Numbered from the stretch's first letter, positions 2,296 through 31,561 are shown. The stretch: DNA of 32,000 nucleotides from Archaeoglobus fulgidus DSM 4304 (GCF_000008665.1 NC_000917.1:480001-512000); one strand, 5' to 3'. Notes: a model not told the origin generated them from the letters alone. Numbers and translations: made by a program.

Positions 2296-4180
2296 GTGAG
2301 TCCTGATCAGACGGCTGTTGAGTACACGGCAAAGGATATCGAAGTTCTTGACGACCTCGAAGCTGTAAGGAAGAGGCCTGGAATGTATATCGGTGGAGTA
2401 GGAGTGCGTGGACTTCATCACCTTCTTTGGGAGGTGGTTGATAATGCGGTTGATGAGGCCCTTGCGGGTTACTGCGATACAATAAAAGTGAGTCTTCACA
2501 AAGATGGCTCGGCATCGGTAGAGGATAACGGGCGAGGCATACCTACGGAAATGCACGAGTTAGGCAAATCAGCGCTTGAAATAGTGATGACGAAGCTTCA
2601 CGCTGGGGGAAAGTTCTCGAAGAAGGTTTACCGCGTTTCCGGGGGCTTGCACGGAGTTGGTGTATCGGTTGTTAACGCACTCTCGGAGTGGCTGGAGGTG
2701 TGGGTCAAAAGAAACGGTAAAATCTACTACCAGAAGTATCAGCGCGGAAGCCGGTCACCGAACTGAAGTTCTTGGAGAGACGAAAGAGCACGGCACTACG
2801 GTGAGGTTCAAGCCGGACAGGGAGATTTTCGAAACGACGGAATTCAAGTATGAGATAGTGGCCCAGCGCCTGAAGGAGCTCGCGTATCTCAACCGCGGAT
2901 TGAAGATTATACTATTCGATGAAAGGGAGGGTAAGGAAGAGACGTTCCACTTTGAAGACGGGATAATCGGTCTTGTGAGGAGCCTAAACAGGAATCGAAA
3001 GCCTCTCCATGAGCCCATTTACATTGAGACCACTAAGGACGGAGTGAGTGTTGAGGTCGCAATTCAGTTCACGGATTCGGATGTCGAGAACATTCAGGCT
3101 TTCGCCAACAACATCAACACGTCAGAAGGTGGCTCCCACGTCGTAGGCTTTAGAGCGGGGCTTACAAGAGCGGTAAACGAGTACGGCAAAAAGCACCTCA
3201 AAAAGTTTGAGCCTGTCACCGGAGTTGACATAAGGGAGGGGCTTACGGCTGTTATAAGCGTCAAAGTTCCTGAACCGCAGTTTGAAGGGCAGACAAAGAC
3301 CAAGCTCACGAACAGCGACGTCAAGACTGTCGTCGAGTCTGCGGTTTACTCGGGAGTTTTAAGGTGGCTTGAAGAGAATCCGGCTCAGGCTGAGACGCTT
3401 CTCAATAAGTTTATTTTGAATAAAAAGGCAAGGGAGGCTGCGAAGAGGGCCAAGGAACTTGTAAAGAGGAAGAACGAGCTGATTACAACCCTGCCCGGAA
3501 AACTCGCCGACTGCTCATCGAAGAATCCTGAGGAGAGGGAGCTTTTCATAGTTGAGGGCGAGTCTGCCGGGGGTTCAGCTAAGCAGGCAAGGGACAGAAG
3601 ATTTCAGGCAATCCTTCCGATAAAGGGGAAGATTATAAACGTCGAAAAGGCGGGAATGGCCAGAGTGCTTAAAAATGACGAGATTAAGGCCATAATCTCA
3701 GCCATAGGTGCTGGGATCGGAAAGGATTTCGACATAACAAAGGCAAGATACCGCAGAATCATAATAATGACTGACGCTGACGTCGATGGGGCACACATAA
3801 GGACGCTGCTGCTGACCTTCTTTTACAGGTACATGAGGCCACTGATAGAGAGCGGCTACCTCTACATAGCCCAGCCCCCGCTGTATCAGATAAAGAAGGG
3901 GAAGAAGAGCTACTATGCCTACTCCGACGAAGAGCTGAAGAGGACGCTGGAGCAGGTTGGTGGTGGAGAGGTGCAGAGGTACAAGGGTTTGGGAGAGATG
4001 AACCCGCAGCAACTCTGGGAAACTACGATGAACCCGGAAAACAGAATTTTGATCCAGGTAACTCTTGAGGATGCCAAAAGGGCAGACGAGCTTTTCAGCA
4101 TTCTCATGGGCGAGGATGTGGAGAGCAGGAGGAACTTCATAATGGCCCACTCGAAAGAGGTGAAGAACCTTGACATTTGA
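2296..4180 (+). pseudogene. gyrB: DNA gyrase subunit B; the reading frame is interrupted as sequenced (two apparent 1-nt deletions at about 2748 and 2768)
   Basis: ORFs 2296..2766 and 2657..4180 together make a complete GyrB. They carry the GHKL motifs 'EVVDNAVDE', 'DNGRGIP' and 'GGLHGVG', the TOPRIM motifs 'VEGESAGGSAK' and 'IMTDADVDGAHI', and the tail 'YKGLGEMNP'. The third frame across 2748-2768 encodes KPVTELK, which bridges '...YQKYQRG' to 'VLGETKEHGTTVRFKPD'. Confidence 0.9.
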
Positions 4181-4931
4181 GAAATACAGCAGGCAGATTA
4201 TGATTTTTGGGGAGGAGGGACAGAGAAGGTTGAGCAAAGCCAAGGTTCTTGTGGTCGGCGCGGGGGGTCTTGGTAGCCCGGTAATAGCCTACCTCGCAGC
4301 AGCGGGCGTGGGAAAAATTGGGATAGTTGATGGCGACACAGTCGAGGTTTCCAATTTGCAAAGGCAAATTATACACGCTGGGAATCTCGGGGAAAATAAG
4401 GCGGAGTCGGCCGCAGAATTTGTGAAGAAGCTCAACCCCGACGTTGAGGTGGATGTTTACCCCTTCTCAATAACTCCCGAAAACGTTCTTGAGGTCGTTG
4501 AGCGATACGACGTTGTTGCGGGCTGCCCCGACAGCTTCAGGAGCAGGTTTTTGCTGAACGATGCTTGCATGATTTTAAAAAAGACGTTCGTCCATGCGGC
4601 CGTGTATGCATGGGAAGGGGAGGTGGCAACCTTCACGGGAAAGCCGTGCTACAGATGCTACATTCCGAAATCACCTGAAGAGAGTGGAAGGGCCATATTA
4701 GGAGCTACTGCCGGGGCATTTGGCTGTTTGCAGGCGGCAGAGGTAATTAAAATCATCACCGGAAGTGGTGAACCGCTCATCGGAAGGCTGATAAGGGGAA
4801 ACCTTGCCGAGATGGAGTTCTTCACAATCAACATTCCTGAGAGGGATGACTGTCCTGTTTGCTCAGGAAGGCTGAAAGGTATTTTCGACGAAAACTACGT
4901 TGATGATTGCACAATCAGACGCCTTGAGTGA
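4170..4931 (+). CDS. ThiF/MoeB/HesA-family E1-like adenylyltransferase, paralogue 1
   Basis: The 253-aa ORF carries 'YSRQI', the nucleotide loop 'VVGAGGLGSP', and two CxxC pairs (CYRC, CPVC). The TTG start at 4170 keeps the conserved YSRQ motif and overlaps the gyrB stop by 11 nt. There is no rhodanese domain. The crossover-loop Cys present in paralogue 2 is absent here. Confidence 0.85.
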   Translation: MTFEKYSRQIMIFGEEGQRRLSKAKVLVVGAGGLGSPVIAYLAAAGVGKIGIVDGDTVEVSNLQRQIIHAGNLGENKAESAAEFVKKLNPDVEVDVYPFSITPENVLEVVERYDVVAGCPDSFRSRFLLNDACMILKKTFVHAAVYAWEGEVATFTGKPCYRCYIPKSPEESGRAILGATAGAFGCLQAAEVIKIITGSGEPLIGRLIRGNLAEMEFFTINIPERDDCPVCSGRLKGIFDENYVDDCTIRRLE

Positions 4932-4999: not shown

Positions 5000-6223
5000 A
5001 TGACTACAATTAACTTTCTTGGAGGATGTAGAGAGGTTGGAAGGTCAGCGGTTATGGTAGATGGTATTATGATTGATTACGGTGTAAAACCTTCTGACCC
5101 TCCTGAATTTCCGTTGAATGGTTTATCCCCAAGGGCTGTAATTCTCTCACACGGTCATCTCGACCACATCGGGGTTGCTCCGAACCTAATGTACTACGAC
5201 CCTGAGGTCATTCTCACCCCTCCATCTCACGAGCTTTCAATGATACTGCTGAGGGACTCGATGAAGATAATGCACCCCCCTCCCTTCACCAAGAGAGAGC
5301 TTAGGCAGTTTGAGAGCAACATAAGGGAGGTTGAGTACGAGGAGCCGATAACAGTGGGAGATTACGAGGTTGAGTTTTTCAATGCCGGCCACATTCCGGG
5401 TAGTGCAAGCATCCACATGAGAGGGGATGTAAACATTCTCTACTCAGGAGACATCAGGCTTGAGGAGACGAGGCTGCTTGAGGGGGCCAATACGGACTAT
5501 CCCGAGACGGACATACTTATTGTCGAGAGCACTTACTTCGGGACTGAGCACCCTGACAGAAAGGAGCTTGAAAGAGCCTTTGTTGAGAGCGTGATTGACA
5601 CACTTGATATGGGGGGTCATGCGATCATCCCCGCCTTTGCGGTTGGGAGGACTCAGGAAGTTCTGATGATCCTCGAAAGGTACGGAATAACTCCCTATGT
5701 AGACGGAATGGGTAAGGAGGTTGCGCAGGTTATTCAGAGGCATCCTGACTTTATCAGAAGCCCGAAGGAGCTCAAGAGGGCCGTTAGAAACGCAATCCCC
5801 GTCGAGTGGAGGCAGAGGGAAAGAGTGCTGGAGGAGCCGTCAGCCGTTGTGACTACTGCCGGAATGCTCAACGGCGGTCCAGCGATGTTCTACATATCGA
5901 GGCTCTACAACGACGAGAAGTCGAAGATACTGCTCACGGGCTACCAAGTAGAGGGGACAAACGGGGACATGGCACTAAAAACGGGCATGCTAAACCTCGG
6001 AACAAGGGTCGTGAAGCTTAAAATGGGTGTCGAGCAGTACGACTTCTCCGCGCATGCGGACGACAGGCAGCTGAAGGAGTACGTTAAGAGGGTTGTTGAC
6101 AGAGGGGCAGAGGTCGTCTTCACAATTCATGGTGAAGAGACGGAGGCGTTTGCAGAGTGGATTAAGGACAACATTGGAGTTGAAGCGTACGCACCGAAGA
6201 ACGGAGAAATCTACGTAATATGA
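5000..6223 (+). CDS. beta-CASP family metallo-beta-lactamase RNase (aCPSF2-like, no KH domains)
   Basis: The ORF has 'LSHGHLDHIG' (HxHxDH) and beta-CASP motifs A, B and C ('ESTYFG', 'FSAHAD', 'TIHGE'). I prefer the ATG at 5000 ('MTTINFLGG') over the GTG at 4928 given in the track. Confidence 0.85.
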   Translation: MTTINFLGGCREVGRSAVMVDGIMIDYGVKPSDPPEFPLNGLSPRAVILSHGHLDHIGVAPNLMYYDPEVILTPPSHELSMILLRDSMKIMHPPPFTKRELRQFESNIREVEYEEPITVGDYEVEFFNAGHIPGSASIHMRGDVNILYSGDIRLEETRLLEGANTDYPETDILIVESTYFGTEHPDRKELERAFVESVIDTLDMGGHAIIPAFAVGRTQEVLMILERYGITPYVDGMGKEVAQVIQRHPDFIRSPKELKRAVRNAIPVEWRQRERVLEEPSAVVTTAGMLNGGPAMFYISRLYNDEKSKILLTGYQVEGTNGDMALKTGMLNLGTRVVKLKMGVEQYDFSAHADDRQLKEYVKRVVDRGAEVVFTIHGEETEAFAEWIKDNIGVEAYAPKNGEIYVI

Positions 6224-6840
6224 GGGTGCTTCTTCTTTCCGACATTCATTCTTCAACGCAAAACCTTGAAAAAATTCTGAAAGCCGCCGAATACGATGCT
6301 GTTTTCATCGCCGGAGACCTCACGCAATTTAGGCCGAAGGATGCCAAGGTGGTTGATGAAATTATTTCTGAACAAACTGACTCATGCCTTGCCGTGCACG
6401 GTAACTGCGACCATGAGGCAATCTTGGGTGAGAAATACAAGGCTTTAAAGTTCATTCACGGCAAAAGCGTTGAGTTTGACGGCTACACAGTTCACGGGGT
6501 TGGTGGCTCCGGAATTACGCCCTTCAACACGCCGTCAGAGTACACTGAGCGGGAAATTCTTGAAATCATGGACAACTTTGTACTCAGAGATTTCAACATT
6601 CTCCTCTCTCACTGTCCTCCAAAGGGGTTTCTTGACAGGACCTACTCAGGAGTGCACGCTGGCTGTGAGGCGATAAGAGAGAGAATGATAGAGTTTGACG
6701 TAATTCTATGCGGCCATATCCACGAAAGTCACGGAGTAGTGGATTCACCCCAACTCATCGTCAACCCTGGCCCGGTGATGTGGGGGAGGTTTGCGGTCAT
6801 CGATGTGGAGAAGAAGGTGGTGGAGCTCAGGAAACTCTGA
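6220..6840 (+). CDS. calcineurin-like metallophosphoesterase (MJ0936/YfcE-like)
   Basis: The motifs are 'LLLSDIHS', 'AGDLT', 'HGNCD' and 'CGHIHESHG'. Its start overlaps the beta-CASP stop in an ATGA junction. Confidence 0.8.
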   Translation: MRVLLLSDIHSSTQNLEKILKAAEYDAVFIAGDLTQFRPKDAKVVDEIISEQTDSCLAVHGNCDHEAILGEKYKALKFIHGKSVEFDGYTVHGVGGSGITPFNTPSEYTEREILEIMDNFVLRDFNILLSHCPPKGFLDRTYSGVHAGCEAIRERMIEFDVILCGHIHESHGVVDSPQLIVNPGPVMWGRFAVIDVEKKVVELRKL

Positions 6841-7786
6841 AGTACCTAATCTCACCATTCTCCTCCTTCTTACCGACAAGTCCTTTGTGGTACAGGTGTT
6901 CTAAATGGGCAATGGTCTCACCGACGGCAAACCATTTCTGCACGACGTGCACGTCTGCCCACTTTGTATAAACCAAATCCCATGTTATGCTCGGTGCAAC
7001 CTCCCAGGCTGTTTTCGGCGTATTCAGGGCAGATAACGCTTCCCGAAGTCTTTTGGAGTGGTGCTTTTTAATCTCCTCCACTCTGGTTTTCAGGTCGTTC
7101 CACCTACGCCTGTGGCCAGGAAGAACGAGTTTTACGTCCAGATTTTCGACTTTCTCAAGGCTTTGCAGGTAGCTCGAGAGCGAATCCTCGAGGAAAGGCC
7201 ACCACGTTATGTTTGGTGTTATGTCTATCAGCACGTGGTCTCCAGAGAAGAATATCTTCCTGCTTTCGTCGTAAAGGCACGTATGGCCGGGAGAGTGGCC
7301 GGGGGTCTCGATGGCTTTGAGCCTGAAGCTGCCAACTCTAACCACTTCCCCAACTGCAACGAACTCGACATCGTCCTTAACCCAAAAATTCCTTCCCGGA
7401 TGAAGGGAGAGTATCTTCTCAGCTTCTTTTGCGGGAAATCCGTTTTTGATGTAAAATTTCAGCAAATCCCGCCAGTAATCCTCTTCAACCATCGTCTCCC
7501 TTACAATTTTGGCCTCGGTCTCTCCCATTAGGACTTCATCCGCAAGTTTTGCCGCCAAGCCCATGTGGTCCGCATGCATATGCGTGCAGAAAACTCTGAA
7601 GTTCCTCACATTCAGCTCTTCCAGGGCTCCCTTTATGCTTCTGTAGCACGATTCCCTGTTAAATCCCGTATCAATCAGCAGGGCTTCATCACCATCCATG
7701 ACAAGGTACGAATTGGTGTACCTGAGAGGGCTTCCCTTTAGTGGCACTTCTATTCTGTAGATGCCGTCAGCAATCCTTTCCACCAT
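6827..7786 (-). CDS. MBL-fold metallo-hydrolase
   Basis: The motifs are 'THMHADHMG' (HxHxDH), 'TPGHSPGH' and 'GDHV'. The internal ATG at 7786 ('MVERIADGIYRIEVPL') is preferred over the 344-aa track ORF. The 3' end overlaps the convergent phosphoesterase gene by 14 nt. Confidence 0.8.
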   Translation of the reverse strand: MVERIADGIYRIEVPLKGSPLRYTNSYLVMDGDEALLIDTGFNRESCYRSIKGALEELNVRNFRVFCTHMHADHMGLAAKLADEVLMGETEAKIVRETMVEEDYWRDLLKFYIKNGFPAKEAEKILSLHPGRNFWVKDDVEFVAVGEVVRVGSFRLKAIETPGHSPGHTCLYDESRKIFFSGDHVLIDITPNITWWPFLEDSLSSYLQSLEKVENLDVKLVLPGHRRRWNDLKTRVEEIKKHHSKRLREALSALNTPKTAWEVAPSITWDLVYTKWADVHVVQKWFAVGETIAHLEHLYHKGLVGKKEENGEIRYFRVS

Positions 7787-21802: not shown

Positions 21803-23054
21803 GCCTTTTTGCAACTTCATTGGCCTTTTCTATTATTTTGAGCTCCTCCTCCTCGCTCCTGAACACCCCGCCCTCAACCACCACCTCTCCTTTCACTATT
21901 ACAGTGTCAACGCAGCCTGAGGAGGCAGCATATACAAGATTGGCGATGAGGCTGTGCTCTGGCTGCATGTAGGGCTTTGCTAAGTCCACCAGAACAATAT
22001 CGGCCTCGTAGCCCTCCTTTATTACTCCAGACTTTATGCCAAAAGCCTTTGCCCCGTTAAGCGTTGCAGCCTCGAAAACCTCCTCCGCTTTTAGCAGAGT
22101 TGGGTTGCTGTGGTGGAATTTCTGCAGCAAAGCGGCGAACTTCATCTCCTCCAGCATGTCGAGGTTGTTGTTGCTTGCCGCACCATCTGTGGCAAGGGTG
22201 AAGTTAACTCCAGCCCTCTTCATTGCCTCATACCTTATCGCTTTACCGACGCAAAGCTTCATGTTGCTCGCAGGGCAGTGGGCAACGCTCACCCCCTTCT
22301 TCGCCAGAATTTCAATTTCGGCATCCTCCAGCCAGACGCTGTGGGCAGCGATAAGCCTCTTGCTCAAGAATCCAATTTCATCCAGAGCCTGAACGATCAG
22401 CTTCCCGTGCTGCTTTTTAAAGTCTAAAACCTCCTTTTCCGTCTCTGCCAGATGGAAGTGCATGAAGATGTCCATCTCCTCCGCTATCTCAGCAGCCCTC
22501 CTCAACCCGTCAAGGCTCACAGTGTAGACAGCATGAGGGCCTATCGCTCTAAGCACATCGTACTTCTCAATCTCCCTCAGGCTTTTCACCGCATTCTTCA
22601 GGTTCAACTCCAGCAAATCGGGATTGAAGAAGTCGAAGAAAGCTGCAGAAACGCATGCCCTTATTCCGCACTCCTCAGCCGCCCTTGCAATAGCTTCGGG
22701 GAAAAAGTACATGTCGTTGAAAAACACCGTCCCGCTCTTCAGCATCTCAACGCATGCAAGCTTCGTTCCCCAGTAAACTGCTTTATCATCCAGTTTTGCC
22801 TCCAAAGGCCATATTTTCTTCTCCAGCCACTCGTGAAGCTGCATGTCGTCAGCGTAGCTCCTGAAGAGAGTCATTGCAGCGTGGGTGTGGGTGTTGAAGA
22901 AGCCGGGAATAACAGCTTTCCTGCTGCCGTCAATGACGACATCGCTCTTCACAGCCTTACCGCCTATTTCGGAAATCTTTTTCCCTTCAACCTTCAGATT
23001 TCCCTCCACAATTCCCTTGGGAGTCAAAATCTTGGCATTCTTGATGAGAATCAT
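21786..23054 (-). CDS. mtaD: amidohydrolase of the 5'-methylthioadenosine/S-adenosylhomocysteine deaminase family
   Basis: The sequence 'GFFNTHTHAAMTLFRSYADDMQLHEWLEKKIWPLEAKL' matches the MtaD/TM0936-type motif. The metal ligands HxH, 'HFHLAET' and 'TDGAASNN' are present. Confidence 0.8.
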   Translation of the reverse strand: MILIKNAKILTPKGIVEGNLKVEGKKISEIGGKAVKSDVVIDGSRKAVIPGFFNTHTHAAMTLFRSYADDMQLHEWLEKKIWPLEAKLDDKAVYWGTKLACVEMLKSGTVFFNDMYFFPEAIARAAEECGIRACVSAAFFDFFNPDLLELNLKNAVKSLREIEKYDVLRAIGPHAVYTVSLDGLRRAAEIAEEMDIFMHFHLAETEKEVLDFKKQHGKLIVQALDEIGFLSKRLIAAHSVWLEDAEIEILAKKGVSVAHCPASNMKLCVGKAIRYEAMKRAGVNFTLATDGAASNNNLDMLEEMKFAALLQKFHHSNPTLLKAEEVFEAATLNGAKAFGIKSGVIKEGYEADIVLVDLAKPYMQPEHSLIANLVYAASSGCVDTVIVKGEVVVEGGVFRSEEEELKIIEKANEVAKRLTGSA

Positions 23055-23126
23055 TGGCCATTATCCTGACTGCTGGGATAAAATTCTTTTGTCCTCTTTA
23101 TTACTGCCATGAATTTAACACTGACC

Positions 23127-23140
23127 AAAAATTATTAATA
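23127..23140 (+). promoter_or_regulatory. TATA-like box (AAAAATTATTAATA) for the ThrC-like operon
   Basis: Its centre is about 27 nt before the ATG at 23163, consistent with a leaderless first gene. Confidence 0.4.
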
Positions 23141-23162
23141 CTCATAGCATCTTAACAACGTT

Positions 23163-24377
23163 ATGTATCTGGTAGCGTTGAAGTGCAGGATATGTGGAAC
23201 GGAATACCCGCCCGAACCCCTTTACCACTGCAGCCTCTGCTTCGGGCCGCTGGAAGCCGTTTACGATTACGAGGGGATAAAGGAGAGCGTGAGTAAAGAG
23301 GAGATTTCGAAGAGAGTGCAGAGCGTATGGAGATACAGGGAGTTTTTACCCACCAACCATGATCCCGTTGACCTCGGAGCAGGATTTACGAGATTCATAC
23401 ACGCAAAGAACCTTGGAGAGTGTCTGGGACTAAAGAACCTCTACCTGCTGGACGATTCGACCAATCCAACCTACTCCTTCAAGGACAGAGTCGTGAGCGT
23501 TGCAGTAACCAAGGCGCTGGAGTTCGGGATGGATGTTGTTGGATGCGCCTCTACCGGAAACCTCGCCGGAAGCTTGGCAGCGCACGCCGCTAAGGCTGGA
23601 CTGAAAGCTTTCATATTCGTTCCTGCTGGTATAGAGAAGAACAAAATCGTTCAGGCTCTCGTGCATGGAGCTACGGTTGTTGAGGTAAATGGAACCTATG
23701 ACGACGCCAACAGGCTCGCTGCGGAAATAGCGGAGAAGAACAGGAACTGGGGATTCGTGAACATCAACCTCCGCCCCTACTATGTGGAGGGAAGCAAAAC
23801 CCTTGCCTTTGAAGCTGCGGAGAGGCTTGGATGGGAGGCCCCATCTCAGGTGGTGGTGCCCGTCGCATCTGGAGCGCTGCTTTACTCGATTTACAGAGGT
23901 TTCAAAGAGCTTGAGACAGTTGGACTTATCGATTCGGCTGAAGTTGCTTTCAACGCCGCCCAGCCTGAGGGATTTCCGGTAGCGAGGGCTGTGAAGGAGA
24001 GAAGACAGGTTGAGCCAATAGAGAGGTTCAGCACGATAGTCCACAGCCTCGCCATAGGGAATCCAGCGGACGGAATCTTTGCAAAGGAGGTTGTGGAGAG
24101 AAGCGGCGGTTACGCTGAAGACCCGAGCGACGCTGAGGTTATCGAGGCTGTCAAGCTCCTCGCGAGGACTGAGGGGATTTTCACCGAGCTTGCTGGAGGT
24201 GTGACAGTTGCTGCTCTAATAAGGCTGGTTGAGGACGGCAGAATTGACAGAGACGAGAAGGTTGTGGCGTATCTCACAGGAAACGGGCTTAAAACAGCTG
24301 AAGCTGTGGCAGAGACTCTGAGCACCGTAAAGATAGATGCCAGAGTAGAAGAGTTTGAGAAGGTCTTGGGGAGGTGA
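23163..24377 (+). CDS. threonine synthase-like PLP enzyme (ThrC paralogue or family member) with an N-terminal Cys4 ribbon
   Basis: The PLP-lysine motif 'NPTYSFKDR', 'CASTGNLAGSLAAHAAKAG' and a C-terminal 'TGNGLK' are present. The N-terminus is 'CRICGTEY...CSLCFGPLE'. The gene is translationally coupled to the downstream MoaD/ThiS-like gene. Confidence 0.85.
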   Translation: MYLVALKCRICGTEYPPEPLYHCSLCFGPLEAVYDYEGIKESVSKEEISKRVQSVWRYREFLPTNHDPVDLGAGFTRFIHAKNLGECLGLKNLYLLDDSTNPTYSFKDRVVSVAVTKALEFGMDVVGCASTGNLAGSLAAHAAKAGLKAFIFVPAGIEKNKIVQALVHGATVVEVNGTYDDANRLAAEIAEKNRNWGFVNINLRPYYVEGSKTLAFEAAERLGWEAPSQVVVPVASGALLYSIYRGFKELETVGLIDSAEVAFNAAQPEGFPVARAVKERRQVEPIERFSTIVHSLAIGNPADGIFAKEVVERSGGYAEDPSDAEVIEAVKLLARTEGIFTELAGGVTVAALIRLVEDGRIDRDEKVVAYLTGNGLKTAEAVAETLSTVKIDARVEEFEKVLGR

Positions 24378-24381
24378 AGGG

Positions 24382-24648
24382 ATGGCGATAAAGGTCAGGC
24401 TTCCAGCATCGATAAATCAGGGAGATCTGGAAATTGATGCGGAGAAGCTTACGGTAAACCAGCTAATAGCTCTGCTTTCTCAGATTACCGGCAAAGACCT
24501 CGAAAAAATTCTGAAGAGGGACGGTGAGCTTTCACCCTTCATCAGCATCTTTGTCAATGGCAGGAATGTGAGGTATGCTGAGGGGCTCGAAACTGAGGTA
24601 AGAAGCGGGGACGAGGTTTCAATCGTTCCGACGGTGGCTGGTGGTTAA
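24382..24648 (+). CDS. MoaD/ThiS-family beta-grasp sulfur-carrier (ubiquitin-like) protein ending in Gly-Gly
   Basis: The 88-aa protein ends '...GDEVSIVPTVAGG' followed directly by the stop. The RBS GGGGAGGTGA spans the thrC-like stop. The size and the 'FVNGRNV' / 'GDEVSIVP' pattern are typical of MoaD and ThiS. Confidence 0.8.
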   Translation: MAIKVRLPASINQGDLEIDAEKLTVNQLIALLSQITGKDLEKILKRDGELSPFISIFVNGRNVRYAEGLETEVRSGDEVSIVPTVAGG

Positions 24649-25452
24649 ATGCTGAACAAGGAGCAGGTAAAGCGCTACGGAAGACAGATTCTGATTCCAG
24701 AAATTGGTGGAAGAGGTCAGGAAAAGCTTCTGAAGGCGAAAGTGCTTGTTGTGGGAGCAGGTGGGCTCGGAAGCCCCGCAATAGAGTTTCTCGCAGCTGC
24801 CGGAGTTGGCAGGATTGGCATCGCTGATGGAGATGAGGTGGACATAACGAATCTCCACCGCCAGACCATTCACGCAGGAAATCTTGGCGTAAACAAGGCT
24901 GAATCGGCAGCGAGCTTCGTTGAGAAACTCAATCCTGATGTGGAGGTTGATGTGTATCCCTTCCACCTTTCTGCAGAGAATGCGAGAGAGGTGATATCGA
25001 AATACGACGTCGTGCTGGACTGCACCGACAGCTTCAGTTCGAGGTTCCTGATAAACGACGCATGCGTTCTGGAAAGTAAGCCTTTCGTGCACGCTGCCGT
25101 GCTGAGATTTGAAGGGCAGATTATGACAGTTATCCCCCACGAAACTGCCTGCTACCGCTGCTTTCTGCCCGAAGCTCCTCCGCCCGGCAGCGTTCCGAGC
25201 TGCAGGGAGGCGGGGATAATAGGGACGACCACAGCATTTTTTGGAGTTCTTCAGGCCAACGAGGCGATTAAGCTCATTCTTGGCACAGGTGAGCTTTTCA
25301 CCAACAGGCTTCTCTACGCCGACATCCTCCACAACGATTTTAACTTCATTGAGGTAAAGAAGCAGGAGAAGTGCAGGGTGTGTGGTGAGAGTGGGATTGA
25401 GGAGCTGAGGAGTGATTACTATGTCGAGACGTGCAGAATCGAGGCAGATTGA
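24649..25452 (+). CDS. ThiF/MoeB/UbaA-family E1-like adenylyltransferase, paralogue 2
   Basis: The motifs are 'YGRQILIPEIG', 'VVGAGGLGSP', CYRC and CRVC zinc motifs, and the crossover-loop Cys in 'PSCREAGIIG'. Its ATG follows the carrier-protein TAA with zero spacer. There is no rhodanese domain. Confidence 0.85.
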   Translation: MLNKEQVKRYGRQILIPEIGGRGQEKLLKAKVLVVGAGGLGSPAIEFLAAAGVGRIGIADGDEVDITNLHRQTIHAGNLGVNKAESAASFVEKLNPDVEVDVYPFHLSAENAREVISKYDVVLDCTDSFSSRFLINDACVLESKPFVHAAVLRFEGQIMTVIPHETACYRCFLPEAPPPGSVPSCREAGIIGTTTAFFGVLQANEAIKLILGTGELFTNRLLYADILHNDFNFIEVKKQEKCRVCGESGIEELRSDYYVETCRIEAD

Positions 25453-25678
25453 GGCTAATGAAGTCCTTGATATTCGCGGAGAAGTTTGCCCTTTCACCTT
25501 CATCGAGACAAAGCTCAAGCTTGAGGAGATGAAAAGCGGGGAGATTCTTAGGGTTATCATTGACCATGAGCCTGCAGTGAGAGACGTGCCGAGGAGCGTG
25601 GAGCAGGAGGGGCATGAGGTTCTTTCAGTGGAAAAGGTAGGAGAGAAAGAATGGAGTATTCTTATAAAAAAGAAGTAA
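25421..25678 (+). CDS. TusA/SirA-family sulfurtransferase
   Basis: The active-site motif is 'LDIRGEVCPFTFIETKLKLEEM'. The 'GEILRVIIDHEPAVRDVPRSV' pattern is also present. The ATG at 25421 follows GAGGAGTGA. The gene overlaps the E1 3' end by 32 nt. Confidence 0.8.
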   Translation: MSRRAESRQIEANEVLDIRGEVCPFTFIETKLKLEEMKSGEILRVIIDHEPAVRDVPRSVEQEGHEVLSVEKVGEKEWSILIKKK

Positions 25679-25710
25679 AAGCTTTTTGAATATTTTTATA
25701 AAAGCTTTTT
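25677..25710 (+). terminator. hairpin-capable pair of AAAAGCTTTTT elements ending in T5; possible terminator that also overlaps a TATA-like TTTTTATAAAA
   Basis: The 11-mer occurs at 25677-25687 and 25700-25710. Each contains the self-complementary AAAAGCTTTT, so the two copies can pair into a 10-bp stem with a 13-nt loop. The structure lies directly after the tusA stop. Confidence 0.3.
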
Positions 25711-25808
25711 AACACCGTTAAATTTTCAGGGAGCAGTTTTTCACGAAATTATCAAAACCTCGCAAAGCTATTTAAGAAATAAGAGTGATAGTTCAGTGAG
25801 GTGATGTT

Positions 25809-26192
25809 ATGAAACTGGCAATTGTTCTGGCAAGTGGTGAGTTGGAGAAGGTTCAGGCTGCGAGCATTATTGCAAGCACCGCCGCAACGCTCGGCGAGGT
25901 AATGGTTTTCGCCACAATGGACGGGTTGATGGCCTTCAAGAAAGACGTGGTGGAGAACAAGGCATGGAAGGCTGGAGAGCTTGGTAAGGGCATGATTCAG
26001 GCAAATGCACCGCTCTTCATAGACGTTCTCAAGCAGGCAAAGGAGGTAGGAAATCTGAAGGTCTATGCCTGCGGTATGGTCATGGACATGCTGAAGATGA
26101 GCCTTGACGACTTCGTTGACATCTTTGATGACGTCATTGGCGTCACGAAGTTCCTCGGCATGGTTGAGGACGCAAAGGTTCTCTTCATCTAA
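25809..26192 (+). CDS. DsrE/DsrF-like (COG2210-type) sulfur-relay protein
   Basis: The 127-aa protein starts 'MKLAIVLASGELEKV...' and has a conserved Cys in 'VYACGMVMDM'. A GAGGTGA RBS precedes it. It is immediately followed by a second TusA gene. Confidence 0.7.
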   Translation: MKLAIVLASGELEKVQAASIIASTAATLGEVMVFATMDGLMAFKKDVVENKAWKAGELGKGMIQANAPLFIDVLKQAKEVGNLKVYACGMVMDMLKMSLDDFVDIFDDVIGVTKFLGMVEDAKVLFI

Positions 26193-26212
26193 ATTTTTTG
26201 GGGGTGGTTGAG

Positions 26213-26434
26213 ATGGTAGTTGTTGACGCAAGGGGAAGCTACTGCCCGGGCCCACTGATGGAGATGATTAAAACTCTCAAGCAGGTTGAGGTTGGAGAGG
26301 TTGTTGAGGTTCTCTCCAGCGATGAAAGCAGTGCCAAAGACATTCCTGAGTGGGTCAAGAAAGCTGGACATGAGCTTGTTGAGGTAAAGAAGGAAGAAGA
26401 CTACTGGAGAATTGTTGTTAAGAAGTTGAAGTGA
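26213..26434 (+). CDS. TusA/SirA-family sulfurtransferase, second copy
   Basis: The active-site motif is 'VDARGSYCPGPLMEMIKTLKQV'. The ATG at 26213 has a GGGGTGG RBS and is preferred over the TTG at 26198. Confidence 0.8.
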   Translation: MVVVDARGSYCPGPLMEMIKTLKQVEVGEVVEVLSSDESSAKDIPEWVKKAGHELVEVKKEEDYWRIVVKKLK

Positions 26435-26435
26435 T

Positions 26436-27578
26436 ATGAAAAACATTGTTATTGTTGGTGGAGGAGTTGCTGGAACCATTACTGCAAACTACCTCGCAAT
26501 GAAGCTCAGGGAGGAAATCAGGGAGAAGAACGTCTCCATAACCCTGATTTCAGACAGGGAGAAGCAGCTCTACGAGCCGGGACTGCTTTACCTCATTTTC
26601 AACAGAATGGAGGAGAGCGAGATTCTCAAAGATGTTAAGTACCTTCTTGACCCGCTAATTGAGCTGAAGATTGCAAGGGCAACGAAAATTGATGCGGAGA
26701 AGAGCAGGGTTGAGCTTGAAAATGGAGAAGTGGTAAACTACGACTACCTTGTCATCGCTACAGGTTCAAGAGTTGCTCCTGAGGAGATGCCGGGGCTTGT
26801 TGATGGCGGACACTGGTTCTACAACCTTGATGGGGCAAAAAGGCTGAGAGAGGAGCTTGCAAGGTTCAAGAAGGGAAAGGTTGTCGTCAGCGTAATGGGA
26901 ATCCCGCACAAATGCCCCGTTGCACCCATTGAGGTTACCTTCATGCTCCACGAGTTCTTCAAGATTCACGGCGTGAGGAAGGATGTGGAGTTGCTCTACA
27001 CCTACCCGATAAACAGAGTCTTCACGATGGAGGAGGTTTCCGACCTTGTCCAAAAAATGTTCGACGAGAGGGGGATAAACTACAAGACCTTCTTCAATCC
27101 CGTAAGCATCGACCCTGAGAAGAAGGTCATTGAGACTCTGGAGGGTGAGGAGGAGCCATACGACCTCCTTATAGCAATCCCGCCGCACAAGGGCTCTCAG
27201 GTAATCATCGACTCAGGCCTTGGCGATAGAGATGGCTGGGTCCCGACTGACAGGTACACGCTGAAGGCCGAGGGACTGGAGAATGTGTATGTTGTTGGAG
27301 ATGCGACGAATTTGCCAGTAAGCAAAGCAGGCAGTGTGGCACACTTTGAGGCGGAGGTTGTGGCGGAGAATATAGCTGCGGAGATTAAGGGCCTGCCCCC
27401 AACAGCCAGATACTTCGGAAAGGCGATGTGCTTCATCGAGACGGGATTCAGCGAGGCGACATACATATGGTTCGACTACGAGACACCACCGAAATTCGTA
27501 AAGCCTAACAAGTTCATCCACTGGATGAAGCTTGCCTACAACAGAATGTACTGGCTTACGGCAAGAGGTATGCTCTGA
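26436..27578 (+). CDS. sulfide:quinone oxidoreductase-like FAD-dependent pyridine-nucleotide-disulfide oxidoreductase
   Basis: An N-terminal Rossmann motif 'IVIVGGGVAGTITA' and 'YVVGDATNLPVSKAGSVAHFEAEV' are present. Two Cys lie at SQR-like positions ('GIPHKCPVAPIE' and 'GKAMCFIETG'). The start is 1 nt after the tusA stop. Confidence 0.7.
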   Translation: MKNIVIVGGGVAGTITANYLAMKLREEIREKNVSITLISDREKQLYEPGLLYLIFNRMEESEILKDVKYLLDPLIELKIARATKIDAEKSRVELENGEVVNYDYLVIATGSRVAPEEMPGLVDGGHWFYNLDGAKRLREELARFKKGKVVVSVMGIPHKCPVAPIEVTFMLHEFFKIHGVRKDVELLYTYPINRVFTMEEVSDLVQKMFDERGINYKTFFNPVSIDPEKKVIETLEGEEEPYDLLIAIPPHKGSQVIIDSGLGDRDGWVPTDRYTLKAEGLENVYVVGDATNLPVSKAGSVAHFEAEVVAENIAAEIKGLPPTARYFGKAMCFIETGFSEATYIWFDYETPPKFVKPNKFIHWMKLAYNRMYWLTARGML

Positions 27579-27587
27579 GGTGGTAGT

Positions 27588-28001
27588 ATGTCGGAAGAGG
27601 AGACTGTCAAGCAGCTTGAGCCCCTTCTGAAGAAAATAGCGGAGAATCAGGAGCACCTCATAGAGGCGATTGACAAGCTGGTCTGGCTTGAGAAGAGTGG
27701 GAATCTCGATGCTCTGCTTGGATTTTCAGCCCTCATCAAAATCGTTCAGGACTCAATCAGCGATGCGGTGGTGGAGAGGAACATGGAGATGATATCGAAC
27801 ATAGGCTTGATTTCGACCAAGTTCACCAGCGACAGAGCTTTGGTTCTGCTCAACGCTCTTGGAGATGCGATCTGCAGGTGCGAGAGGGAGCCTGAGCCCG
27901 TTGGCATGGTAGGGCTGATGAAAGCACTCAGAGAGCCTGAGGTGCAGAAGGCTCTGGGAATGCTGCTGAACATCGCGAGGGAGCTTGGGAAGAACATATA
28001 A
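27588..28001 (+). CDS. DUF1641-like small helical protein (a common partner of SQR-like flavoproteins)
   Basis: The 137-aa protein has a helical repeat pattern and a C-terminal 'GLMKALREPEVQKALGMLLNIAREL'. The family name comes from my memory of this motif and its neighbourhood. Confidence 0.6.
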   Translation: MSEEETVKQLEPLLKKIAENQEHLIEAIDKLVWLEKSGNLDALLGFSALIKIVQDSISDAVVERNMEMISNIGLISTKFTSDRALVLLNALGDAICRCEREPEPVGMVGLMKALREPEVQKALGMLLNIARELGKNI

Positions 28002-28028
28002 ATTTTTTAAACTTTGTTAACAACGTTA

Positions 28029-28038
28029 ACTTTAAATC
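28029..28038 (+). promoter_or_regulatory. TATA box (ACTTTAAATC) for the LarE-like gene
   Basis: Its centre (~28034) is about 27 nt before the ATG at 28061. Confidence 0.4.
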
Positions 28039-28060
28039 TTTTTTCTCAGAACAACAACCG

Positions 28061-28858
28061 ATGAATCCAGAAACACTGGAAAAACTGCAGAGGATGAGAG
28101 GATTTCTTGAAGGTTTCAAAGGGGTTGTTATCGCCTTCAGCGGTGGTGTTGACAGCTCAACTCTTGCTGCGGTCTGCAAGGATGCAGGACTTGATGTTCT
28201 GGCAGTAACGGTTGTCTCTCAAAAATCTCCGTCAAGGGAAATTAAAGATGCTGCAAAAATCGCAATGGAAATTGGCGTGAAACACGAGTTTGTCAATATG
28301 GACATTCTGACACCGGAATTCAGGGAAAACACATCTGAGAGGTGCTACTTCTGCAAGAAAAAGGTTCTTTCATCTCTGGTGTCCTTGGCCGAGGAGAGGG
28401 GTTACGATGCAGTTTTTGAAGGGACAAATGCGAGCGATTTAGAAGGGCACAGACCGGGATACAAAGCTGTAAAGGAAATGCACGGGGTTTACAGTCCTTG
28501 GGCTGAATTTGGGATTACGAAGAAGGAAATAAGGATGGTAGCGAAGTCCATGGGGTTTTCGTTTTACGACAAGCCGTCTCTTGCCTGCTTGGCTTCGAGA
28601 ATCCCTTCTGGCGTTGAAATTGACGAGCGAAAGCTGAGAATGGTCGATGAGGCAGAGAATCTGGTGATAGAAATTGCTGGGGTGAGGCAGGTAAGGGTGA
28701 GGAATTATGACGGTGTTGCAGTCGTGGAGGTCGGTGAAGAGGAGATAGGCAAGCTACTCGAAAAAGCGACGATAGTGAGGGACAGGCTGAAGGAAATAGG
28801 ATTTAGATCGGTTCTGGTTGATCTGGAGGGCTACAGAACGGGGAAGCAGCTGTTTTAG
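28061..28858 (+). CDS. LarE-family PP-loop ATP pyrophosphatase / sulfur transferase (TIGR00268-like)
   Basis: The PP-loop is 'AFSGGVDSS'. Three conserved Cys are present ('CYFCKK' and 'PSLACLASR'). The C-terminal domain contains 'VRVRNYDGVAVVEV'. Confidence 0.8.
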   Translation: MNPETLEKLQRMRGFLEGFKGVVIAFSGGVDSSTLAAVCKDAGLDVLAVTVVSQKSPSREIKDAAKIAMEIGVKHEFVNMDILTPEFRENTSERCYFCKKKVLSSLVSLAEERGYDAVFEGTNASDLEGHRPGYKAVKEMHGVYSPWAEFGITKKEIRMVAKSMGFSFYDKPSLACLASRIPSGVEIDERKLRMVDEAENLVIEIAGVRQVRVRNYDGVAVVEVGEEEIGKLLEKATIVRDRLKEIGFRSVLVDLEGYRTGKQLF

Positions 28859-29570
28859 ACATCAATTGCGTCCCCTCTAACAACTACATTTGTTGCAAAG
28901 GACACTGCAGCCAAACCACTTTTTTTCGCACACCTTTATCGCAGAATCCAGTATCGCCGCCTTGGACACCACAAGAGGTATTCCGGCTCTCACACATTTC
29001 ATCGCTATACCCCTCGAAATTCTGCCTGACAGTAGCAAGAAAGTCCGGCTCAGGTCAACCCCCATCAATAGAGCCGCCCCTATGGCTTTATCAACAGCGT
29101 TGTGCCTTCCAACGTCGTATCTCCGGACAATTAATCCATCTTTCCCCACTATTGCAGCAATATGATATCCATGTGTTCTCTCATACTCTTCGACGTTAAG
29201 ATAATCCAGAGCCCTTTCTGTCTCGGCATATTGAGAACCTCTCTCCCACTTCAACCTTCCCTACAACTTCATCCTCTCTGTAGATTCCTATGCATCCGGA
29301 AGACCTGATGGTGGATTCGCCCGGATTTCCATTCACATTGACGAAGACCGCATTGCTGTTCTGCAAACAGGGTGCCTCACGGAATTCGATGTCTTCAACA
29401 GATTTGGCAATCCCTTCAGAGATCAGAAATCCAACTGCAAGCTCTTGCAGATTTTTTGGAGTGCACATTATTCTGTATGGTGTTCTACCCACAAAAATCG
29501 TGAACTGATCCTCTTCTGCGAGTTCAAGAGGTTCGCCGATTTTTTCAATCACGTATAGAAGTTTAGCCAT
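28855..29570 (-). pseudogene. fdhD: FdhD-family sulfurtransferase (formate dehydrogenase accessory protein) with two frameshifts
   Basis: The N-terminal ORF 29196..29570 carries 'TPKNLQELAVGFLISEGI'. The C-terminal ORF 28877..29254 carries 'YDVGRHNAVDKAIG'. The first frame break is near 29225-29240. The second is in the T7 run at 28920-28926. Removing one T restores '...AIKVCEKSGLAAVSFATNVVVRGDAIDV' with a stop at 28855-28857. Confidence 0.75.
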
Positions 29571-29608
29571 AGGTTAAAAACCTTAACATTTCCTGCATTA
29601 ACCAAAAC

Positions 29609-29618
29609 CTTTAAATAA
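29609..29618 (+). promoter_or_regulatory. TATA box (CTTTAAATAA) of the feoB promoter
   Basis: An A-rich BRE-like AAAACC precedes it. The predicted TSS is near 29640, about 33 nt before the ATG at 29673. Confidence 0.45.
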
Positions 29619-29634
29619 TTTAGGTTAACCTAAA
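29619..29634. promoter_or_regulatory. perfect 16-bp palindrome TTTAGGTTAACCTAAA; DtxR/IdeR-type 'iron box'-like operator
   Basis: I read it directly. The half-sites TTAGGTTA / TAACCTAA match the classical DtxR/IdeR operator halves. It lies between the TATA box and the predicted TSS of feoB, and a DtxR-like gene lies downstream of feoB. Confidence 0.6.
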
Positions 29635-29672
29635 AATAAATGAAGTGTCACAGTGTTAATCAACCCACAGTG

Positions 29673-31561
29673 ATGGAAAGCAGTCGCAGAAAGGTAGCTC
29701 TTTGGAAATCCGAACGTGGGGAAGAGCGCACTTTTTTACGCATTAACAGGAAAATACGCAACTATTTCAAATTATCCGGGAACCACAGTTGACGTTGCAA
29801 TTGCAAGAATGAGGGATATTGAGGTGATAGACACACCGGGAATGCATTCCTTGGTTCCTGTAACCGGTGAGGAGGAGGTTGCGAGAAGACTGCTTGAGGA
29901 GGTTGATTTGGTAGTTCATGTTGTTGATGCCAAGAACATAAAGAGGGCGCTTCCCTTCACTCTTCAGCTAATCGAGGCGGGTTTTAACGTGATTCTCGTT
30001 CTCAATCTCGTAGATGAGGCTGAGAAGCTCGGTATATTCATCAACGAGAAGATGCTTGAGCAAAGGTTGGGAATTCCCGTGATAAAGACAATCGCAACGG
30101 AGAAGAGGGGCGTGGGTAGCCTGAAGGAGGAGATCAGAAGGAGAATTGATGGGGGAAAGGACGGCAGGCAGGTTATCAGTTCAGCCCCCAGATTGAGAAG
30201 GTTGTCAAGGAAGTTGAAGAGATGCTTGAAGGAGACTACAGCATTTCCAAAAGGGCCATGGCGATTTTGCTGCTTTTAAAAGACCCCATTTCCCTTGAAA
30301 TGGTTAAAAAGGAGAGAAATTATGATAAAATAGTGGAAAGGGTTAACGTCAGCGGTGTTCTCCCCTACGAAATAATGAGGGAGATTTATGAGGATGCGGA
30401 AGAGATGCTAAACGGGGTTATGAGATATGAGGAGACTTCAAAAGGGTTGACAAAGAAAATAGGGGTTCTCTTCCTGAATCCGCTGTTCGGCATTCCCCTC
30501 AGCATCCTGTCCCTCGCCTTTATCTACCTCCTTGCCGGGTATATCGGTGCGCAGATTCTTGTTGATTTTATAGAGACGTGGTTCGAAGAGAACATTAATT
30601 CAGCTGTCAATGCCTTCCTTTACCAGAACGTTCCGAACTACTGGGATCAGGGAGTTGATCGGCGGAGATTACGGGATTATAACGCTGAGCATCAGATACG
30701 CGATAGCAATAATCTTCCCGATAGTGACGACCTTCTTCCTCGCTTTTTCGATTCTGGAGGATTCAAGATTACTACCGAGAACCGCTTATCTGCTCGATGG
30801 AGTCTTCAAGAAAATCGGAATGAGTTGTAGGACTGTCATCCCGCTCCTGCTCGGCACGGGTTGTGGGACGATGGCAGTCATCGTGACCAGAATTCTTGAG
30901 ACATGGAGGGAGAGGATTATAGCCACGGTTTTGCTTGCTGTGGGCATACCATGCAGCGCCCAGCTTGGAGTTATGATTGGTATAGCTCCCGACTTCATAG
31001 CGATGCTGATGTGGATTTCAATCGTCACTGCGGTTCTCCTGATAACCGGATTTTTCGCTTCCAGAATTTTACCGGGAGAGGGCGGTTTTCTTCATGGAAA
31101 TTCCACCGGTGAGAGTGCCGAAGCTTGAGAATGTGTTTTACAAAACCGTGTCGAGGCTTGAGTGGTATTTCAAGGAGGTTCTGCCAATCTTCGTTCTTAT
31201 CAGCTTCCTGATATGAATTGGCAGAATAACCACAGTCTTCGATATTATAATCGCTGCACTGAGCGTTCCGGTTTCGGCTATAGGTCTGCCTGCTGAAGCT
31301 TCAAAGGTGTTCCTATATGGTTTCTTCAGGAGGGATTACGGTGCTGCAGGACTTTTCGATATTGCTGGCGAGGGTTTGCTCGGATACAATCAGATTCTGG
31401 TGGCCATGGTTACTCTTACACTCTTCGTTCCCTGCGTAGCGCAGTTCAGCGTAGTATGCAAGGAGAGAGGACTTAGACAGGGGGTGCTTGTTTTTGTGCT
31501 TTCCGTAACGATAGCCTTTACTACAGGCTTTGTAACCGCCTTAATGTTAGGGGTGGTGTGA
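29673..31561 (+). pseudogene. feoB: ferrous iron transporter FeoB, disrupted by four frameshifts and one in-frame TGA
   Basis: The G-domain motifs 'GNPNVGKS', 'PGTTV', 'DTPG' and 'NLVD' are present. The membrane domain carries 'LEDSRLLPRTAYLLDGVFKKIGMSCRTVIPLLLGTGCGTMA', 'FFMEIPPVRVPK' and 'GFFRRDYGAAGL'. The pieces lie in ORFs starting at 29673, 29716, 30222, 30610, 31088 and 31307, in different frames. A TGA at 31214-31216 replaces the expected Trp ('FLI*IGR'). Confidence 0.9.

Follow-up and report, generated by a model that had tools for sequence, protein, structure and literature searches.

A candidate sulfide:menaquinone oxidoreductase cassette with HMP, TusA and DsrE-like partners in Archaeoglobus fulgidus

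The cst operon of Staphylococcus aureus encodes a type II sulfide:quinone oxidoreductase (SQR), CstA, which carries rhodanese-, TusA- and DsrE-like domains, and CstB. In Cupriavidus, Rhd442–SQR fusions join a sulfurtransferase domain to a type II SQR (PMC11094781), and an operon of Methylacidiphilum that encodes a type III SQR, TusA and DsrE2 is upregulated 1.7-fold on H2S (PMC10205796). Another line of work concerns HucM, ForE and YjlC/Ncp, proteins of the DUF1641 or HMP family, which, as experiments have shown, assemble as hydrophobic tubes of four subunits; the tube serves a dehydrogenase as scaffold and membrane dock and leads menaquinone to it (PMC13524794, PMC13433803, PMC8808070). Most HMP genes adjoin SQR genes, and SQR has been proposed as the ancestral partner of the family (PMC13433803). 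These two recent and so far unconnected lines, HMP quinone conduits and TusA/DsrE sulfur relays, are joined by the four-gene cassette analyzed here, which occupies positions 25809–28001 of a 32,000-nucleotide (nt) stretch of the Archaeoglobus fulgidus DSM 4304 genome (NC_000917.1:480001–512000, hereafter the window). On balance, our comparisons favour the view that this cassette is a self-contained operon for a cytoplasmic, type III-like sulfide:menaquinone oxidoreductase and three dedicated partners.

Gene content, families and recurrence of the cassette

The cassette comprises the following genes:
25809–26192, + strand: DsrE2B-like sulfur carrier, 127 residues, with a single conserved cysteine in the motif KVYACGMV
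26213–26434, + strand: TusA sulfur carrier (TusA2), 73 residues counted from the ATG, with the motif DARGSYCPGP
26436–27578, + strand: type III-like SQR flavoprotein, 380 residues, with an FAD motif, Cys160 and Cys332
27588–28001, + strand: HMP (DUF1641) protein, 137 residues, with domain PF07849

A sequence-only reading of the window had described four co-directional genes, separated by 20, 1 and 9 nt and starting 130 nt past the stop of a first TusA gene (25678), and had taken them for a DsrE-family protein, a second TusA, a flavoprotein and a DUF1641-like protein. The coordinates of the open reading frames (ORFs) bear out this layout, Pfam and NCBIfam agree on every family, and the four motifs that had been quoted (YACGMV, RGSYCPGP, HKCPVAP and AMCFIETG) are all found in the translations. 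The TusA2 ORF is also open from a TTG at 26198, but it is the ATG at 26213 that has a GGTGG Shine-Dalgarno sequence 7 nt in front of it. None of the four proteins carries an N-terminal signal sequence, the SQR opening with its Rossmann motif, which would place a complex between them at the cytoplasmic side of the membrane.

A genome scan with one genome per species gave at least 585 genomes with a relative of the window SQR, of which the best 80 loci (designated L plus a number) were fetched; they form a clade 49–98% identical to the query SQR, and the cassette counts hold for that clade. Partner genes were found by searching the ORFs of the 80 loci with the window proteins and with profiles derived from them, and partner counts were taken only where the contig reaches far enough (76 or 78 loci). 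All four genes occur together in 66 of the 80 loci, on one strand and in the order DsrE–TusA–SQR–HMP, an arrangement whose retention in other organisms is far beyond chance. A TusA gene lies directly upstream of the SQR gene in every testable locus (76/76), an HMP gene directly downstream of it in 77–78 of 78, and a DsrE-like gene upstream of TusA in 68 of 76, the loci devoid of DsrE belonging to several Nitrospirota and some Alphaproteobacteria. Median intergenic gaps across loci are 11 nt (SQR–HMP), 62 nt (TusA–SQR) and 23 nt (DsrE–TusA). The hosts are Archaeoglobaceae (Archaeoglobi), Nitrospirota, Alpha- and Gammaproteobacteria (Magnetospirillum, Inmirania), Campylobacterales, Aquificales, Moorellaceae and Anaerolineae; the linkage, which the sequence-only reading had envisaged might be unique to this genome, thus recurs in numerous bacterial and archaeal genomes. 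In Inmirania, Nitrospirota, Geoglobus, Rhodospirillales, Persephonella and a deltaproteobacterium, the cassette stands alone amid unrelated genes and, the flanking genes being wholly different between lineages, it qualifies as a self-contained module.

Some loci display additional genes next to the cassette. Many Alphaproteobacteria have a second, more divergent DsrE–TusA pair just upstream of the cassette DsrE–TusA pair (L025, L026, L037, L041, L042, L048, L051, L056, L064, L069, L070 and L077). Genes for a histidine kinase and a sigma-54 response regulator are found directly upstream of the cassette in a deltaproteobacterium (L086, 4417–6939), and a gene for a CRP-family regulator holds the same place in a metagenome-assembled Nitrospirota genome (L082, 8932–9624).

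The flavoprotein, which is 100% identical to an A. fulgidus entry labelled 'NAD(P)/FAD-dependent oxidoreductase', matches PF07992 (Pyr_redox_2, 82 bits) and has its FAD-binding GxGxxG motif at residues 8–14 (GGGVAGT). It contains exactly two cysteines, C160 (PHKCPVAP) and C332 (GKAMCFIE), which a phmmer alignment with human SQOR (E 1e-38) places opposite the cysteines of KC-AGAP and TSC-PLVTG, respectively, the catalytic pair, Cys201 and Cys379 of the human enzyme. All 38 homologues, down to 51% identity, keep both cysteines, within the blocks PHKCPVAP.E and G...CF.E. There being only two cysteines in the translation, the third cysteine of type I SQRs (Cys124 in Aquifex aeolicus, Cys128 in A. 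ferrooxidans) is absent; Marcia et al. are said to have defined type III SQRs in 2010 by this very absence. The numbering also agrees with the 'canonical Cys159/Cys339 of type III SQRs' cited in PMC13047784, and Archaeoglobus sequences were placed earlier among type III/V SQRs (PMC4584964). Among curated models, NF049943 ('type III SQR, selenoprotein subtype') is the best, matched over the full length with an E-value of 2e-110 and a score of 369 bits, below its cut-off of 525.

The AlphaFold2 model of the SQR has a mean predicted local distance difference test score (pLDDT) of 92.7, and a Foldseek search with it returned human SQOR (template-modelling score, TM, 0.90), A. aeolicus SQR (0.89) and Acidithiobacillus SQR (0.86), with NDH-2 enzymes below them (0.73–0.80). 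No GxGxxG motif was found by eye in the second Rossmann unit (KVVVSVMGIPHKCPVAP), which argues against an NAD(P)H-dependent enzyme. We conclude that the flavoprotein is an SQR-type enzyme, closest to type III, with predicted activity on sulfide. The N-terminal Rossmann motif and the cysteines at both SQR positions, on which the sequence-only reading had based its SQR-like assignment, hold up against the SQOR alignment and the 38 homologues; of that reading, the enzyme type, cysteine pair and linkage to TusA/DsrE are supported, and a general link to the neighbouring operon is not.

The C-terminus of the enzyme is short: the alignment reaches residue 392 in A. aeolicus SQR (430 residues long) and residue 360 in human SQOR (418 residues), after which the protein ends, the model has a single short C-terminal helix (residues 359–376), and the tail H..K..YN..YWL.ARG.L is largely conserved among homologues. 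In HMP-bound Ndh, the C-terminal region serves docking and not membrane insertion (PMC13433803). By analogy, we infer that the short, conserved SQR C-terminus fits an HMP-docked arrangement such as that of Ndh.

The fourth protein of the cassette matches PF07849, a family now labelled HMP in the domain library, over residues 99–135 (58.6 bits, cut-off 21). A profile built from the cassette HMPs matches the characterised proteins ForE1 (E 2e-8, profile positions 19–160 against residues 9–158), Ncp (1.9e-8), YjlC (3e-8) and HucM (6e-4). Since DUF1641 is the HMP quinone-conduit family, a quinone is expected as acceptor rather than NAD(P)H; this points to a quinone as the redox partner of the A. 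fulgidus SQR, a matter the sequence-only reading had left open. The length of the cassette HMPs ranges from 128 residues (in Archaeoglobaceae) to 377, the archaeal form (128–146 residues) being minimal. Longer HMPs repeat a helical module, ..L.RSGAL.TL....TD.MVER.., several times (L011, L014, L024, L040, L055, L065 and L074), which suggests tubes of differing length. The cysteines of the window HMP (CRC, residues 96–98) were considered as redox residues and ruled out, as they are not conserved outside Archaeoglobaceae.

The two carriers retain their active-site cysteines. The DsrE-like protein matches PF13686 (DrsE_2, 53 bits, cut-off 25) and PF02635 (26 bits), with a partial match, far below the cut-off, to the NCBIfam DsrE2 model. 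Its closest solved relative is 2QS7 (E 7e-15, cysteine aligned), which has been named DsrE2B (PMC11094781), and its cysteine is kept in 99% of 68 cassette homologues. TusA2 matches PF01206 (88.7 bits), with its cysteine in a C-P-x-P motif (CPGP) that belongs to the segment D-A-R-G..C-P-G-P-L-M-E-L-I, conserved at 90% or more; the cysteine itself is kept in 100% of 76 homologues.

Transcription units and neighbouring genes

The following elements were found around the cassette and its neighbours:
25736–25759, + strand: inverted-repeat element GTTTTTCAC-N6-ATCAAAACC, upstream of the DsrE gene
25768–25780, + strand: TATA-like sequence CTATTTAAGAAAT in the cassette promoter region, of putative function
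25798–25805, + strand: Shine-Dalgarno sequence GAGGTGAT, before the DsrE gene
25709–25721, + strand: palindrome TTAACACCGTTAA (TTAAC-N3-GTTAA), a candidate operator, upstream of the cassette
25696–25704, + strand: TATA-like sequence TTTATAAAA, just 5' of the palindrome at 25709–25721
23152–23164, + strand: palindrome TTAACAACGTTAT, abutting the ATG of the ThrC-like gene
28017–28029, + strand: palindrome TTAACAACGTTAA, 32 nt upstream of the LarE-like gene

The inverted repeat recurs across Archaeoglobaceae as GGTTTTTAC-N6-TTTTCAAAACC, about 8 nt before a TATA-like box, and both are kept upstream of DsrE in all nine aligned Archaeoglobaceae loci (window, L001 and L003–L009). The repeat, which is separate from the TTAAC palindrome, probably binds a dedicated regulator. 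Oligo-T runs follow the stop codons of TusA1 and HMP and, together with the conserved promoter element, indicate that the cassette is its own transcription unit; the cassette and the upstream ThrC-like/Ubl/E1 operon are thus separate units, as judged from putative promoter and terminator sequences. A single ten-gene operon was ruled out by these oligo-T tracts, by the promoter element and by a reverse-strand gene in L003. A scan of 22900–29800 with Rfam returned nothing above noise, and no known riboswitch or small RNA in the 130-nt gap. A bacterial promoter and terminator scan gave counts at shuffle level and, its models being bacterial and the host archaeal, is uninformative.

The palindrome TTAAC-N3-GTTAA occurs three times in the window (0.06 expected), each time upstream of a sulfur-related unit, and within the 1.1 Mb of fetched loci it is found in Archaeoglobus loci only. 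The copy at the ThrC-like gene is kept at the same place in L001, L003 and L004, and that at LarE is kept upstream of LarE in L003 and L004, whereas the copy at the cassette is not conserved in L003 or L004. Written out as TTAACA-N-(C/T)GTTA(A/T), the palindrome is present, besides the window, in L003 (2937, 9593 and 15122), L004 (3956, 4647, 12346 and 14699) and L001 (569 and 6206). Promoter-proximal palindromes are also found at genes for a lone TusA, a SepCysS-like protein, an FmdE-like protein and an FTR1-like permease, again in Archaeoglobus loci only. This distribution makes the palindrome a candidate operator for a putative regulon of sulfur (or iron-sulfur) assimilation, which would include the cassette in A. 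fulgidus strains and not detectably in L003 or L004; its presence upstream of three units in A. fulgidus lends modest support to co-regulation at the strain level.

The genes on either side, all outside the cassette, are:
23163–24377, + strand: ThrC-like
24382–24648, + strand: ubiquitin-like protein (Ubl) ending in GG
24649–25452, + strand: E1
25412–25678, + strand: TusA1
28061–28858, + strand: LarE-like (TIGR00268, 268.7 bits)
28877–29254 and 29196–29570, − strand: FdhD, as two ORFs (partial matches to TIGR00129 and PF02634)

Among the fetched loci, an upstream ThrC-like/Ubl/E1/TusA1 unit adjoins the cassette in Archaeoglobus alone (L001, L003 and L004, i.e. 3 of 80, besides the window), and LarE plus FdhD lie directly downstream of it only in L003; the other Archaeoglobaceae and Geoglobus have the cassette with no adjoining E1 operon. 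In L003 (Archaeoglobus sp. UBA230), the E1/TusA1 operon is split from the cassette by a gene on the − strand (5494–7098) for a 534-residue multihaem cytochrome c with a C-terminal anchor. The proposal that sulfur is handed on to the adjacent E1/Ubl/ThrC-like system, LarE and FdhD is therefore not supported as a general rule, given an adjacency restricted to Archaeoglobus, separate units and the interruption in L003. Likewise, the neighbourhood comparison that the sequence-only reading had called for, of SQR, DUF1641, TusA and DsrE with ThrC-like/Ubl/E1, yields a widespread cassette and an E1 linkage confined to one genus. Its description of ten consecutive sulfur-transfer genes (23163–29570) was loosely worded, DUF1641 being a quinone/membrane adaptor and FdhD being split into two ORFs.

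The two FdhD ORFs overlap, and a single ORF is present in L003 (10433–11131), pointing to a frameshift, a pseudogene or a sequencing error in this strain. In Geoglobus acetivorans (L083, 8167–8433), the second gene upstream of the cassette, beyond a reverse-strand gene, is of the ThiS family and may be the remnant of a link to a sulfur-carrier protein. Elsewhere in the window, a second ThiF/E1 paralogue (4170–4931, + strand; PF00899, 240 bits) is found about 20 kb upstream, and the segment 17381–19554 (+ strand) contains a gene for a Nitrate_red_gam-type membrane cytochrome b followed by a 477-residue ORF.

Proposed mechanism and competing explanations

In the mechanism that we propose, HS− would attack the Cys160/Cys332 redox centre beside FAD, and two electrons would pass via FAD to menaquinone, which is present in A. 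fulgidus. The quinone would be reached through an HMP tube docked on the membrane rather than through a long amphipathic SQR tail, the C-terminal helix of SQR being the likely docking element for HMP. The sulfane sulfur formed on SQR would be taken up as a persulfide on the conserved cysteine of TusA and/or of the DsrE2B-like trimer instead of being released as polysulfide; the acceptor-dependence of SQRs that lack the third cysteine and the sulfurtransferases fused to, or encoded with, type II SQRs provide a precedent for such uptake, as does the orthologous-looking, H2S-induced operon of Methylacidiphilum (PMC10205796). The carriers would then supply consumers that differ by organism, plausible ones in A. 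fulgidus being the neighbouring TusA1/E1/Ubl/ThrC-like system, the LarE-like protein and FdhD.

Several observations weigh against this mechanism. (i) Sulfide oxidation by menaquinone looks futile in a sulfate reducer unless the flux is small; it would be meaningful only at low flux, for biosynthesis or homeostasis. (ii) Geoglobus and other iron reducers also carry the cassette; its role is therefore independent of dissimilatory sulfur metabolism. (iii) DsrE is missing from 8 of 76 loci and is therefore not essential to the core. (iv) The AlphaFold2 model of the HMP monomer is poor (pLDDT 57.6; predicted TM score, pTM, 0.32), so that the tube architecture is a prediction from sequence homology, although an obligate intertwined tetramer would explain a poor monomer model. 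(v) The closest curated SQR model, NF049943, is an 'exception' model matched below its cut-off. (vi) Induction of the Methylacidiphilum operon is only 1.7-fold (PMC10205796). (vii) In Chlorobaculum tepidum, deletion of the other sqr genes left the membranes without any SQR activity from the type III enzyme, as reported in PMC4584964.

The most serious competitor, itself unlikely though by no means negligible, keeps the same enzymology and limits its role to sulfide detoxification or respiratory sulfide oxidation, TusA and DsrE acting as a buffer for sulfane sulfur with no link to the neighbouring genes. The solitary position of the cassette in unrelated neighbourhoods across lineages speaks for it, as does the adjacency of the E1 operon, which is limited to Archaeoglobus and broken in L003. 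The induction by sulfide in Methylacidiphilum was read in this way (PMC10205796), and work cited in PMC11094781 indicates that sulfurtransferases limit sulfane-sulfur stress during sulfide oxidation. Against this, A. fulgidus is an anaerobe living in its own sulfide, for which oxidation to menaquinone would gain little, and the TTAAC-N3-GTTAA palindrome common to the ThrC-like operon, the cassette and LarE hints at co-regulation. In addition, A. fulgidus IscS is inactive as a cysteine desulfurase (PMC7585200), which creates a need for another source of persulfide.

We regard it as improbable that the system runs in reverse, with TusA and DsrE bringing the flavoprotein sulfur that derives from thiosulfate, S0 or polysulfide, in persulfide or thiosulfonate form, for reduction to sulfide with menaquinol supplied by HMP. 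A. fulgidus does reduce thiosulfate and sulfite, the carrier genes lie upstream of the enzyme gene, and the direction of catalysis is not fixed by sequence or by computed results; but menaquinol, at about −75 mV, is poorly suited to reducing sulfane sulfur (about −270 mV), and the cassette is frequently found in sulfide oxidisers that live aerobically or microaerobically. Metallosphaera DsrE/TusA pairs do carry thiosulfonate (Liu et al. 2014, as cited in PMC11094781), but all characterised relatives of the enzyme oxidise sulfide, including heterologously expressed type III enzymes cited in PMC10205796. Finally, a sulfide-independent enzyme set beside sulfur carriers by chance, be it a CoA-disulfide/persulfide reductase, an NADH oxidase or an NDH-2-type NADH:quinone reductase, is very improbable: NCBIfam CoA-disulfide reductase matches are weak (E 1e-6 to 1e-10, far below cut-offs) and NDH-2 is a proven HMP partner (PMC13524794), but the second domain has no NAD(P)H-binding GxGxxG, both SQR redox cysteines are invariant, in sequence as in fold the protein stands closer to SQRs than to NDH-2 or CoA-disulfide reductase, and Ndh–HMP pairs are known only in Bacillota, there only in Bacillales (PMC13524794, PMC13433803).

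A further extension of the sulfide:menaquinone oxidoreductase mechanism, which we consider doubtful, is that SQR is the A. fulgidus persulfide generator that replaces a cysteine desulfurase and feeds co-regulated neighbours, with TusA as an obligate sulfane acceptor across the clade. Support for a replacement of cysteine desulfurase comes from the adjacency and common motif seen in one genus. If true, the persulfide generator would charge TusA/DsrE2B from free sulfide at the expense of menaquinone, and the neighbours supplied would be the TusA1–E1–Ubl thiocarboxylate system with its ThrC-like enzyme, the LarE-like protein and FdhD. Direct loading of TusA by SQR would be one answer to how sulfide enters cofactors, thiolated tRNA and thiocarboxylates in anaerobes with no working cysteine desulfurase. 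TusA as obligate acceptor might also explain why a type III SQR appears inactive in a membrane assay, and the A. fulgidus cassette is suited to asking if type III SQRs use TusA as their sulfane acceptor. Being thermostable and minimal (137-residue HMP, 380-residue SQR), the A. fulgidus version is in addition a good candidate for a first SQR–HMP structure.

Comparison with described systems

The sequence-only reading knew of no described system with this combination. Its components and two of the pairings, SQR–TusA–DsrE and SQR–HMP, have each been published; a literature search for DUF1641, TusA and DsrE in one paper found none that joins them. As to the enzyme, the type III SQRs of Caldivirga maquilingensis, Sulfurimonas denitrificans and Methylacidiphilum fumariolicum (MFUM_v2_0219) likewise have two cysteines and no third; the A. 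fulgidus SQR, compared with them by description and through the NCBIfam model, differs in that its host is a strictly anaerobic sulfate reducer.

As to the carriers, the S. aureus cst operon and the Cupriavidus SQR–Rhd442 fusion also combine an SQR devoid of the polysulfide-building third cysteine with cysteine-based sulfurtransferases that take the sulfane sulfur. The cassette differs from both in the SQR class and in having neither a persulfide dioxygenase nor a rhodanese, and its carriers, unlike theirs, are separate small proteins accompanied by an HMP adaptor. The DsrE3A/TusA and DsrE2B systems of Metallosphaera and Saccharolobus and the DsrE3B/C–TusA relay to sHdr resemble it in the side-by-side arrangement of a DsrE-family protein of the trimer type and TusA, each with a single active cysteine. 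The sulfur of those relays comes from other sources, travels as thiosulfonate or persulfide and ends up in sHdr or Dsr oxidation systems, whereas in the window the partner of the carriers is an SQR, with no adjacent hdr or dsr genes.

As to the quinone adaptor, HucSLM of Mycobacterium smegmatis, ForCE and Ndh–Ncp/YjlC of Bacillus subtilis share with the cassette a small all-helical protein with a C-terminal PF07849 domain, encoded directly after the gene for a quinone-reducing dehydrogenase (at a distance of 9 nt in the window). The window SQR further resembles HMP-bound Ndh in its shortened, conserved C-terminus (PMC13433803). The archaeal HMP, at 128–146 residues, is minimal compared with bacterial cassette HMPs of up to 377 residues, and its partner here is an SQR, a pairing known from gene neighbourhoods alone (PMC13433803).

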